Shown here: positions 19,838 to 33,159 of the stretch, piece after piece
How the letters are laid out: each line of letters starts with the position of its first letter
How positions within the stretch are numbered: position 1 is the first letter of the stretch
From: an uncultured archaeon
GTDB lineage: Archaea; Asgardarchaeota; Lokiarchaeia; Sigyniarchaeales; SOKP01
Reading direction: 5' to 3'
Length of the DNA: 64,000 bases
NCBI GenBank assembly: GCA_964632315.1
Contig: CAZWEM010000008.1
Location: forward strand, 1 to 64,000
The notes under the pieces: model-generated
The model's input: the letters and a program-made list of their open reading frames with translations, nothing else
Told to the model about the DNA's origin: nothing
Database searches by the model: none
Made by a program: the position numbers and the translations under genes

Positions 19838-20242
19838 TTATTCAAGAATAAGTTCAGCATTATCCTCTTCTTCACTTCCTCCAAGGCAGTGATTTCGAAT
19901 GACTTCAACTAACCAATCGAATACTGTCGGCCCTTTTTGTTGCTTTGCTTCATCAATTTGTTTTTGAATAGAAATTACATTATCTGGATGACATTTCTCA
20001 AGTCTTTTAGTTAATTGCCTAACTGTTTCCTCATATCCGAGGAATTGCTTCGATAATTGCCAATTTTTCCAAATGAGTACATACCCTTGTTCGGGCATGA
20101 AATCTGAACGTAATATATCATTCAATGCATCCAAATTGCGACCCCACCATGAAGGAAGTGAGAGAACATCAGTGATCTCATCATAAAATTTCTCGAGCGT
20201 TTTAAAGTTATTTCCATCCATAATGAATTTAGGTTTACCCAT
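19838..20242 (-). CDS. barstar family protein
   Basis: DGNNFKTLEKFYDEI...WGRNLDALNDIL. Confidence 0.85.
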   Translation of the reverse strand: MGKPKFIMDGNNFKTLEKFYDEITDVLSLPSWWGRNLDALNDILRSDFMPEQGYVLIWKNWQLSKQFLGYEETVRQLTKRLEKCHPDNVISIQKQIDEAKQQKGPTVFDWLVEVIRNHCLGGSEEEDNAELILE

Positions 20243-24402: not shown

Positions 24403-24795
24403 ATGTATGGTTTATTTTATCTCATGAATTCCTATGACATCGACATATTAAAATATGAATTGGATAGGATTTCATCAACCTTAGGAATAATTGGATGTGC
24501 TTTAGTTGAGAGAAACGGCCTTACAATCACTTCAGAACTCCCGAGAACTTTGAATGAAAAAAGTTTAGCTGCCATGACAGCGACAATGTTCGAAGCGATG
24601 GAATCTGCCATCCCTAACAAAGAAAAAATAATTTCCAATATAACGGTTGAGTATGAAGACTATGAAATTTTCATAACTAAAGTAAATGGCCAAGTTTTAT
24701 TTATCGGTTTAATTGAGTATAACATCGATTTGGGATTAATTTTGATAGAAATTGAAGAATTTGTAACTAAAATTTCACAATTATTGGAGAATTAA
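24403..24795 (+). CDS. roadblock/LC7 domain protein
   Basis: GIIGCALVERNGLTITSELP...LAAMTATM...NIDLGLILIE. Confidence 0.85.
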   Translation: MYGLFYLMNSYDIDILKYELDRISSTLGIIGCALVERNGLTITSELPRTLNEKSLAAMTATMFEAMESAIPNKEKIISNITVEYEDYEIFITKVNGQVLFIGLIEYNIDLGLILIEIEEFVTKISQLLEN

Positions 24796-24797
24796 TC

Positions 24798-25550
24798 ATG
24801 TTAACTGAAGAACAAAAAGAAAGATATTCCAGACAGATAAAATCTCCTTCCATAGGTGAGGAAGGCCAGGAAAAATTAAGTAAAGTGAGAGTGCTTCAGA
24901 TAGGGGTTGGGGGATTAGGTTCTCCCTTTTCCTTATATCTCGTAGCTTCTGGCATTAAAGAATTGACGATTGTTGATAATGATACCGTTTCAATTTCAAA
25001 CCTGCAAAGGCAAATATTATACGATGAAACTCAAGTCGGTCAAAACAAGGTCGACATTGCTTTCGAAACATTATCTAAGCTTAATTCAAACGTGGAGCTT
25101 AAAATCTATAAAGAGTATGTCAATGATGAAACTATTTTGAACTTCTATGACGGACAAGACTTCATTGTGGACTGTAGTGATAACATGAAAACTAAATTCC
25201 TTGTAAACAAGACAGCAATCAACACGAGGACAAAATGTGTAATAGCAGGTATCAAAGATTTCTATGGCCAGATAATGACAATCATTCCAGGAAAAACCGC
25301 ATGTTATGAGTGCGTTTTTAATGAACCTGAGGAAGAAAAAGGACGAAAAAATCCTTTACCAGTTATAGGCGTCACGCCAGGGATTCTTGGAACTTTAGAA
25401 GCGTTGGAAGTCATAAAAACCACTTTAGGATTACCAAACCTGGAAAATAGGCTTCTCATGGTTAACTTATTGAACTTATCTTTTGATATGATTGACGTAG
25501 TTAGGAATGAAAAATGTAGTTGTTCAAATTCCTTATCGACTAATAAATAG
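24798..25550 (+). CDS. HesA/MoeB/ThiF (E1-like) adenylyltransferase
   Basis: ERYSRQ; GVGGLG; SNLQRQ; DCSDN; CYEC...CSC. Confidence 0.92.
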   Translation: MLTEEQKERYSRQIKSPSIGEEGQEKLSKVRVLQIGVGGLGSPFSLYLVASGIKELTIVDNDTVSISNLQRQILYDETQVGQNKVDIAFETLSKLNSNVELKIYKEYVNDETILNFYDGQDFIVDCSDNMKTKFLVNKTAINTRTKCVIAGIKDFYGQIMTIIPGKTACYECVFNEPEEEKGRKNPLPVIGVTPGILGTLEALEVIKTTLGLPNLENRLLMVNLLNLSFDMIDVVRNEKCSCSNSLSTNK

Positions 25551-25579: not shown

Positions 25580-26107
25580 TTACATCCATTTTTTAGTAAT
25601 GAGAGCACAGATACATCCATAGAAAAAGCCATTTACTACTCCAGCAAAGATCAAGTTAACAATTCCGCCTATAGCACCATAATCCCCTAACAATCCCGAC
25701 CAAACTAAATAAAGATATGATGATGTTGCTTGCCCAACACCTAAAAACACAGCATATAGACAACAAGAAATAAATGCCGTTACAAACCATGCTCCGAATC
25801 CTGTAAATTGATTATCACCTATGAATGCAGCCACAATCAGTGATACAATAGGAGGGATAATTAACCCTAAGAAAACCATCCAAACCGTGAGAGAAGCAGG
25901 GTCAGACATAAGTGCGACTATACCGCTATCAATCCACGCTGCACCTGGATAAACTGTGATAGGCGCAAAAATCGAAGCAACGATATACCAAACATCGGTT
26001 GCTGGAAATCCAGAAACTGTAAACATTGCAATCAACGCAAAAACAGTATTCAAAACTAAATAAATAACAATTGTAATAATAAAAGTTTTCCAGAAATTCA
26101 TTTTCAT
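25580..26107 (-). CDS. hypothetical multi-pass membrane protein
   Basis: 4-5 hydrophobic segments. Confidence 0.75.
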   Translation of the reverse strand: MKMNFWKTFIITIVIYLVLNTVFALIAMFTVSGFPATDVWYIVASIFAPITVYPGAAWIDSGIVALMSDPASLTVWMVFLGLIIPPIVSLIVAAFIGDNQFTGFGAWFVTAFISCCLYAVFLGVGQATSSYLYLVWSGLLGDYGAIGGIVNLIFAGVVNGFFYGCICALITKKWM

Positions 26108-26277: not shown

Positions 26278-26829
26278 TTAATAGTCGGGGTTCTCTTTGA
26301 AAAATTTCTTGAAAATCCGTCCATTTTCAGCGTAAGTTCCCGAAGTTTTTGCTCCTATTGGTTTACCTGATTTTGATAATTTCTTTTTAACCTCAGCAGG
26401 AACTCCTACTGCTAAAGTTCTGGAAGGAATCTCTTTATTAACCAAAACAGCACCAGCACCGATCATTGAGCCTTCACCCATCTTTGTACGATGCAAAACA
26501 TTAGCGTCAATTCCAACTAGGCATCCATCCGAGATCTTACAAGGACCATGTATCATAGCGTGATGGCCTATAATGCAATTGTCTCCGATTTCTACAGTAG
26601 AATTCACTTCATTATGGATCGCCACGTGTTCCTGGATGCTTGTATTTTTACCAATGATGATTGTACCCCAATCTCCTCTTAAAACTGCTCCAAACCAAAT
26701 ATTAGAGCCTTCACCAATCGTGACATCACCAATGATTGTTGCATTAGGGGCAATGAATACTGAATTGTGGATTTGAGGAACTTTTCCAGTCCTAGGACTC
26801 GGTATAATTATTGGTTTCATGTTTACCAC
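26278..26829 (-). CDS. gamma-carbonic anhydrase family protein
   Basis: Hexapeptide repeats; IWFGAVLRGD; IGHHAMIHG. Confidence 0.92.
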   Translation of the reverse strand: MVNMKPIIIPSPRTGKVPQIHNSVFIAPNATIIGDVTIGEGSNIWFGAVLRGDWGTIIIGKNTSIQEHVAIHNEVNSTVEIGDNCIIGHHAMIHGPCKISDGCLVGIDANVLHRTKMGEGSMIGAGAVLVNKEIPSRTLAVGVPAEVKKKLSKSGKPIGAKTSGTYAENGRIFKKFFKENPDY

Positions 26830-26866: not shown

Positions 26867-28546
26867 CTAATTATAATAACCTGAATCTTCAAGCATTTTT
26901 TTATGGTCAAATGCTAGTTTTAGTTTTTTTAATTCCTCTTTCGAAATTAAAAATACCTCTGCACTATCATCTCCACTTTTCATTTTCTCTTTTCCACCTA
27001 TTATCTTACACTTATATGCCGTAGAGTGCACATTTCCTCGTGGATCTCTCCCTGGATCGTTATAAACTCCAACCTTAGTTTGGATTTTAACGTCTAAATT
27101 CGTTTCTTCTTTGATTTCCCTAATTAAAGCTTGTTTTGGGGTCTCTCCCTTTTCCACGCCACCTCCTGGTAAAGCAAAATAATCTTTATACGGGGGATAT
27201 TTTCTTTTTATCAGCACGACATTGCCATCATCATCTTCAATAATCGCATCAACGGCGTATTGGATTTGGGTTTTATTCCTCATAACTCTCGCATAAATAT
27301 AATAAGTGACAGTGACCACTAAGATCCCGATGATGATGAGACCAATAACGCTATTTAGTAATGTTGCAAGAGTATCACCTTCTTGTAGTGTAAGAGCAAC
27401 CATTATAACACCTGCTAAGTCTGCTAAAATACCAGCTCCAAAAAGAAGGTTTAAGAGATTTAACCCCCTTTCAGTACGTTTTTGATTCTGCTCACTCTGT
27501 TTTTGATATAAGTCTTGGATAGCTTCATAAATCGTTTCAAACTTGTTATTTATTCTTTCAACAATACCATTTATATCAAATTCATTTAAAAGGTATTTCA
27601 AGACCTTGGTATAATGTTCTCTTCTGTTATAATCAAGCTCATTATAGATCACGCTGAGTCTTGTTTGTATTAAACCACGCAATAATCTTAAATTCTTTAT
27701 CTTTTCTTCAATATAGTCTAAGTTTTCAAAAACATCTGTTTGAGACTTCAAGAATAAAAGGTCTAATGATTCATTTATGGATCTTAATGAAAATTGGACA
27801 GCCCTCATTTTTGGAGTTGGTTCGAGCACATATCTTATCATGTAGGATGAGAAAAATTGTTCATAATTATCTTCGGCCATGTAGATAAAACCCGAATTTC
27901 GGCGAATAAAATGTAATTCAGAAAGCCTATTAGAAAGGTTTCCCCGAATCCTTCGAGTGTATAGATCATCAGAATAATCTGGCCACTGTCCGGAGTAAAT
28001 AACCGTCCAATAAGAGATAACTTTCTTGTACTTTTCGATATTTTCAGTTGTCCAGTCTATGTTCATGGGTCTACTACCATTTGAAGTCGCAAAAATGTAG
28101 AGTGGACTTTCTAAATCCATGAGAATTCCTCTATATTCCTCCCTTTTTGACAACTCGATCAAAACTCCAAGGACGAGATAAGGTATTTGTTGAAGGATCA
28201 TTGGATCCATGACTTGCTTTTTGGCAGGATCATCTGGAAAATGATCAACATCAAATTGAAAATAACCTAAAATGTTAAAGCCTCGATCAGAATTTTCATC
28301 TTGATAAGGGAAATTTTCAACATAAGGAACCCAAAAGCATTCAATATTTGTGTTTTGAGCAACTTCTATTATTTTATCCTTGAAATCTTTCCTATAAATA
28401 TCCCTTTCAGATAGTGTATTGAATTTATGCTTAACTGCGCTCTCGATTTCTTTGCTAATTTGATCTCCATCTACCAAACTTGAATTTATGAATGCACTTA
28501 CATAATAAAAAACATCCTTTAGTAAAAATTGTAGATTTTCCGTCAA
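26867..28546 (-). CDS. membrane protein: large N-terminal domain + helical stalk + 2 TM + ADP-ribose pyrophosphatase-type NUDIX
   Basis: Nudix box GGVEKGETPKQALIREIKEETNL; RDPR and LAFDH motifs; two TM helices before the NUDIX domain. Confidence 0.85.
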   Translation of the reverse strand: MTENLQFLLKDVFYYVSAFINSSLVDGDQISKEIESAVKHKFNTLSERDIYRKDFKDKIIEVAQNTNIECFWVPYVENFPYQDENSDRGFNILGYFQFDVDHFPDDPAKKQVMDPMILQQIPYLVLGVLIELSKREEYRGILMDLESPLYIFATSNGSRPMNIDWTTENIEKYKKVISYWTVIYSGQWPDYSDDLYTRRIRGNLSNRLSELHFIRRNSGFIYMAEDNYEQFFSSYMIRYVLEPTPKMRAVQFSLRSINESLDLLFLKSQTDVFENLDYIEEKIKNLRLLRGLIQTRLSVIYNELDYNRREHYTKVLKYLLNEFDINGIVERINNKFETIYEAIQDLYQKQSEQNQKRTERGLNLLNLLFGAGILADLAGVIMVALTLQEGDTLATLLNSVIGLIIIGILVVTVTYYIYARVMRNKTQIQYAVDAIIEDDDGNVVLIKRKYPPYKDYFALPGGGVEKGETPKQALIREIKEETNLDVKIQTKVGVYNDPGRDPRGNVHSTAYKCKIIGGKEKMKSGDDSAEVFLISKEELKKLKLAFDHKKMLEDSGYYN

Positions 28547-28668
28547 TTCTCACACTTCTAATAAATAATAATTATAATTTTATTCTAATCTTCCTTTCCA
28601 TAAAAGTAATATGCTCTTGCGTCTTATATATATGCAAAGATCAGCAAATTGTGAATGAATGAACATTG

Positions 28669-29610
28669 ATGGATACTGATTTATCAAAAGAGATCGAATT
28701 GTTGAAGAAGCAAAATGATGTAACGATATTAGCACATTATTATCAATCCATTGAAATCCAAAGGATTGCAGATTATCTTGGAGATTCATTAGGATTATCG
28801 CGTATAGCAAAAGATAAAGCAAATACCAAATATATTATTTTTGCTGGCGTTGATTTCATGGCAGAAACGGCATCAATTTTGAACCAAAAGAAACATGTCA
28901 TACTGCCAAATCCTGAATCCTGCTGTCCCATGGCAGCTTTCCTAGACCCTGAAAAAGTAAAACTTTATAGAAAGGAACATCCCAATTTACCCGTTGTTAC
29001 CTATGTTAATAGCACTGCAGCGGTAAAAGCGGAATCTGACGTTTGTTGCACCTCATCTAACGCTGTTAAAATCGTGAAAAAAATATCCAAGGAATTTGGA
29101 ACCGAAGCAGTATTATTTGGACCAGATAGCAACCTAGCTGATTATGCTGAGCAAAAATCGGGGATCAAATGCATTAAAATGCCCGAGAATGGACATTGCT
29201 ACGTGCATTCTCAAATTACAATGGATGATTTTAGAAATGCAAAAGAGAATCATCCTGATGGGTTAGTTTTAGTTCACCCAGAATGTAAAAGAGAGGTAAG
29301 GGATGTTGCGGATTTCGTTGGTTCTACTGCACAAATGTATAATAGAGTCAAAAACGCATCGAAACAAGAAAAAACTTTTATTATAGGAACCGAGATGGGA
29401 TTATTAGAGAGGATGGCTGAAGATTTTCCTCAAAAAAACTATTATTCAATACGAGAAGGGCTTATTTGTTATAACATGAAGAAGCATACCATAGAATTAA
29501 TCAAATACGTGCTTGAAAACTTAGATGATAAGAATTTTGAAGTTAAAGTTCCCGAAGAAATTGCTAAAAAAGCCTTAAAACCAATTGAAAAAATGTTGAA
29601 ATTATCGTGA
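28669..29610 (+). CDS. nadA: quinolinate synthase
   Basis: ILAHYYQ; GDSL; GVDFMAE; CPMA; YVNS; CTSSNA; CYVH; HPEC; GST; C.NMK. Confidence 0.96.
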   Translation: MDTDLSKEIELLKKQNDVTILAHYYQSIEIQRIADYLGDSLGLSRIAKDKANTKYIIFAGVDFMAETASILNQKKHVILPNPESCCPMAAFLDPEKVKLYRKEHPNLPVVTYVNSTAAVKAESDVCCTSSNAVKIVKKISKEFGTEAVLFGPDSNLADYAEQKSGIKCIKMPENGHCYVHSQITMDDFRNAKENHPDGLVLVHPECKREVRDVADFVGSTAQMYNRVKNASKQEKTFIIGTEMGLLERMAEDFPQKNYYSIREGLICYNMKKHTIELIKYVLENLDDKNFEVKVPEEIAKKALKPIEKMLKLS

Positions 29611-29633: not shown

Positions 29634-31169
29634 TTACCAAAAATCTGATAATTTCGTTTGCGGTTTTTCAAACAACCATTTAAGAAAATTAGAAGTAGGT
29701 TTCCAATTCCAAATGCTTTTCTTATTCGTCAGGAATTCAAACTGATTTAAATCTTGATACTTTAAGTTATATTCCTTCATTAAAAGACGAATCTTGAAAA
29801 GCCATTGTACAAAAGCCTTATATAACTGACCATTTGAGCCTGCTTTGTTCACGTGATGAGATTCATAATAATTTATATCATCTTGGGAGAAATTTGAATA
29901 ATAACGATAATTCTGATCATTCCAAAAGAACTGAGATGTACTTTTAACAAATTTATCTATGTTGCAATTCGACATTACAATTGATTCTAATGAGGGATGC
30001 TCACTTAAGAAATCTGGAATTTCAGTTATCTGTCTATTTCCAGAAAGGTCGATCTTTCTCAAGTTTTTGATATCACTAATTCCCTCAAGGCTACATATGT
30101 CGTTGTTACGAAGACTCAAAATCTTCAAGTTATTTAACTTGGTAAAACCTTCTAAAGTACCTATCTTGTTATTATTTAAGTTCAATTTTTCCACATTGGA
30201 GAAGCTCTCAATTCCTTTCATGCTTTTTATCAGATTATTAGATAAATCGAGTTCTTTAGTGTAAGAATATTCATCATCTGGCAATTTAATCTCAAATATG
30301 TTTTTTATATTTTGTTCTCGTAGATCTAGTTTGTCTTTAGTAAAAATGCTAACAATCTTGTCATTGTAGTTTACATACTCTCCTCGATGGTCAAAGTGTT
30401 CTAAATGGGAATTGAGAAACTCGATTATCGGGAAGTTGCGATTGGTTTTGTAAGTTTCATACACAAACTTAACAAATTCTTCCTTGTCATTATTTGAAAT
30501 ACCCTTTATCACGTGAGATAGAATGAATGGGATATTTTGCATCCCCATATATCTCTTGGTAGAATTAATTAGGCCCTTTAACCGTCTATATAATTCTTCA
30601 TTGTTTAGATGTTTTAAAGCTGAAGAAAAGTCGGAAATTAACGTGTTCAGAATCGGAAGCTGATTGTCGTCCAGCAAGCATTCTAATTCATCACGTGTTA
30701 AATATTTCAAATATCCATTATGAATCAAAAACATCATCACGGTATTATGTCCACTAGCATATCTTAGAGCAATTTCCTCTTTGAACCTTTTTCTGGCCAA
30801 CGGATCCCCCGCATCAGTTAGCCTCTTTAATAAGGGAAATGCTAAATTCCTATGCAGAATTCTCGTATCATAATCATTTTCATACCATGCTTGTATGTTT
30901 GAGCAGTGCCCTCGAAATTCTTCCTCAGGAGAGATCTCATAAACACCTCTTCCCCCTCCTTCCATGGATCTATCGAGCATTTCTGCTGCTTCGTCTATTG
31001 AGTCAATGTTATCATATTGCCTGATTCTATTAGTGGGAATGTTCAAGAGAAGGTACATGCATTGCATGAATACCCTATTTTTTACATAAATATGGGTTCT
31101 TCCTTGTTCCAATCTTAATTTAAGAAAGTCATTTACAACATATTCTTTAGAATAATTATTATAATTCAT
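29634..31169 (-). CDS. LRR protein with unnamed N-terminal module and C-terminal Trp-motif repeats
   Basis: LDLSNN/LNLNNN/LSLRNN/IDLSGN repeats. N-terminus homologous to the C-terminal half of 13218-14417. Confidence 0.85.
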   Translation of the reverse strand: MNYNNYSKEYVVNDFLKLRLEQGRTHIYVKNRVFMQCMYLLLNIPTNRIRQYDNIDSIDEAAEMLDRSMEGGGRGVYEISPEEEFRGHCSNIQAWYENDYDTRILHRNLAFPLLKRLTDAGDPLARKRFKEEIALRYASGHNTVMMFLIHNGYLKYLTRDELECLLDDNQLPILNTLISDFSSALKHLNNEELYRRLKGLINSTKRYMGMQNIPFILSHVIKGISNNDKEEFVKFVYETYKTNRNFPIIEFLNSHLEHFDHRGEYVNYNDKIVSIFTKDKLDLREQNIKNIFEIKLPDDEYSYTKELDLSNNLIKSMKGIESFSNVEKLNLNNNKIGTLEGFTKLNNLKILSLRNNDICSLEGISDIKNLRKIDLSGNRQITEIPDFLSEHPSLESIVMSNCNIDKFVKSTSQFFWNDQNYRYYSNFSQDDINYYESHHVNKAGSNGQLYKAFVQWLFKIRLLMKEYNLKYQDLNQFEFLTNKKSIWNWKPTSNFLKWLFEKPQTKLSDFW

Positions 31170-32773: not shown

Positions 32774-32904
32774 ACTGAAGACTTTTTGAGTGAAAGTGTT
32801 GGAACGACTGCAGTTGTTTATTTCAAACCATAGACCTTAAAATAAAAAAATCCATTATATTGATAATAAAATTTCAAATATTACAAGTAGATAGTGAAAT
32901 AATC

Positions 32905-33159
32905 ATGGCACAATATCGTTTTCGGTTGACCGGAGTTCCTCCTGATCAAGCAATTAAACTCATTGAAGTTGATCCAAACCAAAGCATAGCAGAAATTAAG
33001 AAAACCGTTCAAAGAGAATACAAATTAAACCCGATTTTGGCGATTCAATTCATTTTTAAAGGTAAAGTTTTACCAGACCAGCTAAAATTTGCTAAAGTAG
33101 GTATCCATCCGAAGAAAGATGTAATAACCGTTATGGCTACTCAAGCGGGCGGTTGTTAA
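32905..33159 (+). CDS. ubiquitin-like (beta-grasp) protein ending -AGGC
   Basis: 84 aa from ATG 32905. IEVDPNQSIAEIKK and QFIFKGKVLPD parallel ubiquitin's LEVEPSDTIENVKA and RLIFAGKQLED; di-Gly near the C-terminus. Confidence 0.85.
   Translation: MAQYRFRLTGVPPDQAIKLIEVDPNQSIAEIKKTVQREYKLNPILAIQFIFKGKVLPDQLKFAKVGIHPKKDVITVMATQAGGC

Follow-up and report, generated by a model that had tools for sequence, protein, structure and literature searches.

A candidate CorA-like membrane module fused to a putative ADP-ribose-type Nudix domain in a genome of the Lokiarchaeia

What role could a Nudix domain have when it is placed directly behind a pair of transmembrane (TM) helices? This question is raised by a gene located in the first 64,000 nucleotides (nt) of contig CAZWEM010000008.1 (assembly GCA_964632315.1) from an uncultured archaeon of the Lokiarchaeia (phylum Asgardarchaeota), the whole stretch being referred to below as the window. 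The gene encodes a protein of 559 amino acids (aa) in which a soluble N-terminal region is followed by long helices, two TM helices and a C-terminal NUDIX domain, an architecture that a preliminary description of the locus had outlined and that is borne out by the open reading frame (ORF), the hydropathy profile and the Pfam NUDIX match; the amphipathic helix quoted in that description is also present in the protein. As a tentative working model, to which we assign a probability of about 40%, we propose that the protein is a CorA-like membrane module, controlled from the cytoplasm, with a fused Nudix domain of the ADP-ribose (ADPR) type; channel function and a link to nicotinamide adenine dinucleotide (NAD) metabolism are hypotheses. 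New in this analysis are the occurrence of the N-terminal module (N-module, aa 1-425) without the Nudix domain, the grouping together of the fused forms, and the divergent fused members with lost catalytic residues. The gene and the parts of its product are the following:

26867..28546, minus strand: whole gene, 559 aa plus stop, TTG start (from the ORF; homologues are mostly equal in length)
27875..28546, minus strand: predicted cytoplasmic alpha/beta domain, aa 1-224 (from the AlphaFold2 (AF2) model, conservation in alignment A3 and alignment to the N-terminal domain of CorA)
27464..27874, minus strand: four helices and the cytoplasmic part of the stalk helix (H325-386), aa 225-361, with conserved D262, N307, H311 and K335
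27392..27463, minus strand: TM1, aa 362-385, continuous with the stalk, with conserved N366, G370, A371 and D376
27359..27391, minus strand: outer loop, aa 386-396, short and acidic (TLQEGD...), without GMN and unconserved family-wide
27290..27358, minus strand: TM2, aa 397-419, followed by a basic RVMRNK linker (from the AF2 model and hydropathy)
26870..27262, minus strand: NUDIX domain, aa 429-559, NadM-Nudix/NrtR-like, with RDPR at aa 500-503 and AFDH at aa 545-548
27095..27163, minus strand: Nudix box GX5EX7REUXEEXNU, aa 462-484, with all catalytic Glu and Arg residues invariant in 24 orthologues

Judging from its homologues, the ORF is a real, conserved gene, because 485 of them are found at E ≤ 0.001 and the best 120 of these are at least 58% identical and nearly all 555-576 aa long, the few shorter ones probably being partial. 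The start site of the homologues is in the same place, and is TTG in some of them as well. A Kyte-Doolittle scan yields only two hydrophobic segments above 1.6 (aa 362-385 and 397-419). K/R residues precede the first and follow the second of these segments, and the loop between them is acidic; the positive-inside rule hence predicts both soluble parts to be cytoplasmic, in agreement with the earlier claim that the two soluble domains face the same side. The product is thus predicted to be a two-pass protein of the inner membrane.

In the Nudix domain, Pfam PF00293 matches aa 429-553 with E 2e-20 (73.6 bits, compared to a cut-off of 21.1), and the box reads G462-x5-E468-x7-R476-E477-I-K-E480-E481-T-N483-L, the replacement of the last Gly by Asn being its sole deviation. 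G462, E468, R476, E477, E480 and E481 are invariant in the 24 orthologues. The nearly intact box and the RDPR and AFDH motifs reported previously are therefore present in the sequence, and by its motifs the domain is apparently active. Sequence and Foldseek searches both retrieve the Aquifex protein 2yyh as the best solved relative (1.4e-21, 42% identity, TM-score 0.84, root-mean-square deviation (rmsd) 1.4 Å), followed by EF2700 (2fml, an NrtR), NadM-Nudix (2qjo and 2qjt/2r5w) and the NrtR-ADPR complex 3gz8. The top NCBIfam matches are to NadM-Nudix (3e-13) and to an ADPR-responsive repressor (3e-9), both far below the cut-offs of these full-length models. Because the nearest named relatives are NadM-Nudix, NrtR and EF2700, sequence similarity places the domain, as a putative member, in the second ADP-ribose clade ('ADP-ribose (2)'; PMC5389931; PMC2330246). 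The ADPR specificity of the NadM-Nudix/NrtR clade is documented (PMC2330246, PMC5389931), and the ADPR-type affinity assigned to the domain in the preliminary description finds tentative support in these named matches.

Free-standing homologues of the Nudix domain, about 135-140 aa long and about 50% identical, are common in archaea. One of them is a paralogue encoded on contig 29 of the same genome (31867-32256; locus L043:1501-1890), which is 47% identical to the fused copy, has an intact box and matches NadM-Nudix as its top NCBIfam model (2e-19). This free paralogue is likely the housekeeping counterpart of the fused copy, which in turn looks like a recruited duplicate, given the 47% identical free homologue in the genome and the abundance of others in archaea.

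For the N-module (aa 1-425), scans of the Pfam and NCBIfam libraries were without a match. When 1.84 billion representatives were searched exhaustively with a profile, only 103 clusters were retrieved, and these include forms of about 400-440 aa that have neither the Nudix domain nor a Pfam family. A first full-length AF2 model, built with 24 close orthologues as input, had a predicted local distance difference test (pLDDT) value of 72.5, whereas the model of aa 1-425 built from alignment A3, in which the Nudix-less forms were added to give 53 sequences, reached pLDDT 89.1 and a predicted TM-score of 0.80. In the model, the alpha/beta domain occupies aa 1-224 and is followed by four helices, by a helix of 60 residues (aa 325-386) that continues into TM1, by a turn of five residues and by TM2.

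A Foldseek search of the PDB with this N-module model gave no match at E ≤ 0.001, and with the full-length model it gave Nudix matches only. Among the weak matches of the N-module, CorA chains are recurrent, and the cytosolic domain of Escherichia coli CorA has probability 1.0. When the 1,000 best Foldseek chains were re-aligned to the model, the 18 top rows were all from the CorA family (Z 5.8-7.6, 119-241 residues aligned), with full-length CorA-family chains covering model residues of about 9-419. The highest value belongs to Thermotoga maritima CorA (Z 7.6, 234 residues, rmsd 6.0 Å, model range 9-419), followed by Methanocaldococcus jannaschii CorA (Z 7.1), CmaX (Z 7.0), Campylobacter jejuni CorA (Z 6.6, with an rmsd of 2.5 Å over 119 residues) and the E. 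coli CorA cytosolic domain (Z 6.4); the soluble domain of ZntB scored lower (Z 5.1). The best unrelated fold reached Z of about 5 and was restricted to the alpha/beta domain (aa 6-217). A search of 48,161 chains that was independent of Foldseek returned CmaX and C. jejuni CorA as the only whole-length matches, the remainder being helical hairpins. In a language-model search, neighbouring clusters are named 'CorA-like protein' at 0.93, which we take as a lead only. Thus, the model shows the features of the CorA fold (alpha/beta domain, stalk continuous with TM1, TM2, both termini predicted inside), with moderate Z, and only CorA, CmaX and ZntB match it structurally from end to end, which supports the CorA-like fold suggested earlier. 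A tetramer prediction of aa 225-425 scored 0.17 against a mark of 0.42 and is evidence neither for nor against an oligomer.

Several observations weigh against this interpretation. For a model that consists largely of helices, Z values of 7-7.6 with an rmsd of about 6 Å are intermediate, and the aligner itself warns that Z below 8 can stem from a common arrangement. Hmmscan with PF01544 (CorA) gave no match to the protein at E ≤ 0.1, yet the same family detects the canonical CorA of the genome, which is encoded on contig 4 and is the only one found there. An hhalign comparison of A3 with 25 Asgard CorA sequences returned a probability of 2%, although in the local alignment the stalk and TM hairpin are in register with CorA. 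In alignments of the close orthologues and in A3, the outer loop contains neither GMN nor any other conserved motif, whereas YGMN is present in all canonical Asgard CorA sequences compared. On the enzymatic side, the function of 2yyh, the closest solved Nudix protein, is not established (PMC5389931), and the 47% identical free Nudix protein in the same genome means that the fused domain could be a tethered housekeeping enzyme. In view of the intermediate Z values and the large rmsd, we regard the architecture of the N-module as CorA-like with moderate confidence. Given the lack of GMN, the silence of PF01544 and the hhalign probability of 2%, the N-module is CorA-like in shape yet not a member of the CorA family, and aa 1-425 represent a module of an undescribed family. 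Used as a profile against PDB sequences, A3 retrieved chance coiled-coil matches only. The absence of GMN had been recognized before, and the loop indeed reads TLQEGD. By contrast, the proposed kinship with RMD1/DUF155 (PF02582) found no support, since hmmscan gave no match to the protein at E ≤ 0.1 and the family matches nothing in its genome; 60 other Asgard genomes were equally without a match, but the controls were silent too, so this search has little power beyond the genome of the window.

The distribution of conserved residues indicates where the N-module might act. Most of the family-wide invariant residues in A3 are in aa 1-224 (W165, K174, W180, YSG184-186, D190-Y191, R199, NLSNRLSE203-210, H212 and S218), forming a cluster at aa 165-218, and are accompanied by the helix residues D262, N307, H311 and K335. 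At the predicted cytoplasmic start of TM1, N366 is conserved across the wider family, and D376 is conserved in close orthologues. Since the invariants cluster in aa 165-218, the helices and N366 rather than in the outer loop, the conserved 'business end' of the N-module is, by prediction, cytoplasmic, and this is easier to reconcile with a ligand or regulatory site than with a selectivity filter on the outer side. Fused and Nudix-less forms have these invariant residues in common. The existence of the Nudix-less forms of about 400-440 aa and the shared invariants argue that the N-module is autonomous and has a function of its own.

In a quick maximum-likelihood tree of the N-module, all fused proteins form one group (SH-aLRT 81) and the Nudix-less forms make up two other clades, a topology compatible with a single fusion event. 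The family is patchy, with matches of the A2 profile in 15 of the 121 genomes sampled from the phylum. The complete fusion is present in eight of nine other species of the window's genus and in one of two species of a sister genus; two more genera of the same taxonomic family gave no fused form with the A2 profile among the 121 genomes, and the Nudix-less forms are located in other families of the phylum. Accordingly, the expected conservation of the fusion across Asgard archaea holds for close relatives, whereas the fused form is essentially confined to two genera. In related species the gene keeps its synteny and is mostly present as one copy, and two genomes have paralogues. These two genomes, G113 (C22 and C25) and G104 (C50 and C11), carry two fusion paralogues each, one of about 560 aa adjoining nadA and one of about 580 aa elsewhere. 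In a relative represented by P0124, the longer paralogue, of the type of about 580 aa, is divergent from an amino-acid permease gene. The surroundings of the Nudix-less homologues and of one paralogue show no common theme.

Most divergent fused members retain the Nudix box, but four (P0122, P0130, P0134 and P0136) have lost catalytic residues while keeping the architecture. In P0122, RE..EE is changed to RL..KK, and P0136 has RS..ED, whereas in P0130 and P0134 most box residues are gone and RDPR and AFDH are altered. These losses have at least two independent origins. P0136 is 849 aa long, with long extra N- and C-terminal regions. The persistence of the architecture with dead boxes implies a role of the Nudix domain beyond catalysis. 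It favours the view that the domain can serve as a non-catalytic ligand domain with a regulatory role, and it leans towards the 'regulated by' option, rather than the 'hydrolysing' one, of the two that the preliminary description had left side by side for an NAD breakdown product. By analogy, such fused members offer a natural parallel to NrtR and to human TRPM2.

In the working model, the CorA-like module would assemble into a CorA-like oligomer, and a membrane conductance or transport activity would be controlled from its cytoplasmic side. One lineage would have fused a Nudix domain of the NadM-Nudix/NrtR type directly after TM2. This domain would bind a nucleoside-diphosphate ligand resembling ADPR and, in the lineage of the window, would hydrolyse it, thereby tuning or resetting the module. 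A more specific version, which we consider doubtful, is an independently evolved ligand-gated channel-enzyme, in which ADPR or another NAD-derived nucleotide bound to the Nudix domain would gate an oligomeric pore of the CorA fold and hydrolysis would act as a timer; the protein would then be a counterpart of TRPM2 and one of a wider, so far overlooked class of such modules carrying Nudix, GGACT or GNAT domains.

The link to NAD was suggested by the genomic neighbourhood, the relevant features of which are:

28666..29610, plus strand: nadA (quinolinate synthase A), start at 28666 (TTG) or 28669 (ATG), Pfam NadA 5e-108, the divergent neighbour
28547..28665: AT-rich divergent intergenic region with TATA-like elements
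26278..26829, minus strand: hexapeptide protein of the gamma-carbonic anhydrase (gamma-CA) family, co-directional, 37 nt downstream, a neighbour in some relatives

As described previously, the gene is divergent from nadA across about 120 nt (119-122 nt, depending on the start) and the gamma-CA gene follows 37 nt downstream. The gamma-CA assignment is based on an NCBIfam model (5.7e-44, under its cut-off) and on matches to PDB gamma-CA chains down to 4e-34. Divergent nadA adjacency is seen for the window, for the representatives of the four other closest species and for three of six more distant relatives (P0098, P0067 and P0028, the last with one gene inserted). It is absent in P0049, P0075 and P0073 and for all paralogues of about 580 aa that were examined. 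Where the adjacency holds, it is part of a collinear block that matches the window (leucine-rich repeat (LRR) protein, nadA, the fusion gene, gamma-CA, ThiF, Roadblock, L37e, LSM and HGD-D).

This arrangement might mean that the fusion gene and nadA are co-regulated from a shared divergent promoter region within NAD homeostasis, salvage or sensing of ADPR being paired with de novo synthesis. Besides the adjacency itself, this idea is favoured by the fact that ADPR-type Nudix domains regulate NAD genes in the case of NrtR (PMC2330246). However, the adjacency decays in step with the flanking block, with no independent re-association, it is lacking for the longer paralogues, alignment of the intergenic regions of relatives reveals AT-rich TATA-like elements only and no conserved palindromic operator, and the 64,000-nt window contains no further NAD gene. 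Because of this joint decay, the paralogues and the missing operator, the adjacency is weak as evidence of a functional link, and we consider the co-regulation unlikely. Of the proposed nadA link, then, the adjacency stands for the closest species and half of the distant ones, and its conservation beyond them does not.

Other features of the neighbourhood are recorded here in their own right. A divergent gene resembling SepSecS/aminotransferase class V is located directly upstream of the fusion in the loci of two relatives (L003, 3651-4868, and L008, 3674-4888); it is between the fusion and nadA in L003 and replaces nadA in L008. Within the window, a very hydrophobic protein of 175 aa without Pfam or NCBIfam family is encoded between ThiF and gamma-CA (25580-26107, minus strand), and one relative (L007) has an unannotated gene of similar size in this place. 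The LRR protein adjoining nadA (511 aa; 29634-31169, minus strand), of which the N-terminal approximately 300 aa are without a Pfam family, occupies the same place in L003, L005 and L007. Tandem Roadblock/LC7 and ThiF (E1-like) genes, with a ubiquitin-family gene 7 kb away (24403-25550 and 32860-33159, both on the plus strand), form a eukaryote-like set that is found in the same order in L003, L005 and L007. Further away, the window encodes a protein of the Barstar (barnase inhibitor) family (19838-20242, minus strand; Pfam 3.6e-16).

One alternative to the working model is a membrane-tethered Nudix hydrolase, in which the N-module would be a non-conducting anchor, scaffold or sensor for a pyrophosphatase of ADPR or NDP-X (nucleoside diphosphate linked to X) and nothing would cross the membrane. 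The box that is intact and invariant in orthologues would suit such an enzyme, as would the widespread housekeeping-type homologues of about 50% identity, one of them in the same genome, the lack of a conserved selectivity motif in the outer loop and the merely moderate resemblance to CorA. Yet the conservation of the N-module without a Nudix domain implies that it has its own function, the dead boxes of several fused members are left unexplained, and conserved polar residues in TM1 (N366 family-wide and D376 in close orthologues) would be unusual for a mere anchor; we therefore find this explanation worth keeping in view but rather unlikely. The protein could also transport divalent cations as a divergent member of the CorA/ZntB/CmaX superfamily to which the Nudix domain was added for regulation. 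The end-to-end fold matches, which are solely to CorA, CmaX and ZntB, and the register of the stalk and TM hairpin speak for such kinship, but the loop is unconserved and devoid of GMN/GxN, the profile-profile probability is 2%, a canonical CorA already exists in the genome, and a family present in 15 of 121 genomes is patchy. We regard this possibility as very improbable.

Equally remote, in our view, is an antiviral abortive-infection effector in which a nucleotide messenger would open a CorA-like, membrane-disrupting pore and the Nudix domain would clear the signal. There is a direct precedent in the CorA-NrN fusions of type III CRISPR systems (PMC10600005), the family is patchy in the phylum with paralogues in some genomes, and the Nudix part matches a candidate-defence Nudix model of PADLOC. 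The match in question, to PDC-S07 (1e-17), was judged generic. Against a defence role, the gene is located in a stable housekeeping or eukaryote-like block (nadA, gamma-CA, ThiF, Roadblock, LSM and HGD-D) with no defence genes nearby, is syntenic and mostly single-copy in related species, notwithstanding the two genomes with paralogues, and has an N-module that matches no PADLOC model: none was found for the N-modules of P0139, P0149 and P0161, and a sub-significant Csn2 match at the stalk helix of the P0001 N-module (E of about 5e-4) was taken as chance. The surroundings of the Nudix-less forms likewise show no defence theme.

If the working model of a cytoplasm-controlled, CorA-like module with a fused ADPR-type Nudix domain is correct, the archaea most closely related to eukaryotes would possess a new family of membrane conductances under nucleotide control, built on a scaffold that is CorA-like yet invisible to sequence methods. 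The principle of a 'CorA effector plus ligand-degrading enzyme', so far encountered in type III CRISPR, would reach a housekeeping context, and a second independent channel-plus-Nudix design would stand beside TRPM2. As the boxes are intact in some lineages and dead in others within one architecture, catalysis and sensing can be set against each other in a natural experiment. Should the protein be a tethered hydrolase only, what is gained is a modest annotation for a family that is uncharacterised.

The protein can be compared with several known systems. With CorA, CmaX and ZntB (PF01544, 2-TM-GxN), its model shares the alpha/beta domain, the helical bundle, the long stalk continuous with TM1, the short loop, TM2 and the position of both ends inside. 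In CorA, five identical subunits surround a central pore, which TM1 lines. Unlike these proteins, the 559-aa protein lacks GMN/GxN and profile similarity to the family, has its top conservation in the predicted cytoplasmic part rather than in the loop, and carries an enzyme domain of 135 aa after TM2 instead of a short basic tail. A different comparison is with proteins found as structure neighbours in the ESM Atlas, which are of three kinds and are leads only: the protein's own cluster, proteins with Pfam MJ0711_N (TM-score 0.63/0.69 over 318 residues), and bacterial clusters of 514-675 aa in which the same module is followed by a C-terminal GGACT or GNAT domain. MJ0711_N (PF27233) and MJ1566_N (PF27230) are found in uncharacterised archaeal and bacterial proteins. 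Taken together with the GGACT/GNAT look-alikes, they resemble the N-module with TM-scores of 0.59-0.69 over 318-369 residues and are also its language-model neighbours; the bacterial look-alikes share the overall plan of the 559-aa protein and differ in the C-terminal small-molecule enzyme domain. The exhaustive search gave no sequence link to MJ0711_N, MJ1566_N or the look-alikes, its 103 clusters all being matched over the N-module itself, and a literature search for CorA plus Nudix fusions, MJ0711 and MJ1149 returned no relevant work.

TRPM2 resembles the proposed design in combining a channel architecture with a cytoplasmic C-terminal Nudix domain of the ADPR type (NUDT9H). Depending on the lineage, the NUDT9H domain is catalytic or dead. 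The membrane part of TRPM2 is an unrelated TRP tetramer with six TM helices, compared to the CorA-like fold with two in the archaeal protein, and the Nudix subfamilies differ, so that TRPM2 is an analogue and not a homologue, as had been stated from the outset. The Nudix domain itself is closest to NadM-Nudix, NrtR and EF2700, its best named relatives in both sequence and fold, with which it shares the RDPR and FDH motifs. The NrtR-like family mixes intact members with degenerate ones that only bind the ligand (PMC2330246), as the family described here probably does, but in NadM-Nudix and NrtR the domain is fused to a nicotinamide mononucleotide adenylyltransferase or a winged helix-turn-helix domain rather than to a membrane module. 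Finally, the CorA effector of type III CRISPR systems binds S-adenosylmethionine-AMP (SAM-AMP), which is degraded by a fused or adjacent NrN phosphodiesterase (PMC10600005). As in the working model, a divergent membrane protein of the CorA type has a nucleotide-binding cytoplasmic part and is joined in some species to the hydrolase that destroys its ligand, although the CRISPR-associated enzyme is a DHH or DEDD phosphodiesterase and not a Nudix protein, and the 559-aa gene is located outside any CRISPR or defence context. As an analogy, CorA-NrN is the closest documented precedent for the working model, and the lokiarchaeal protein is a variant on the theme of a CorA-like protein plus a nucleotide hydrolase.

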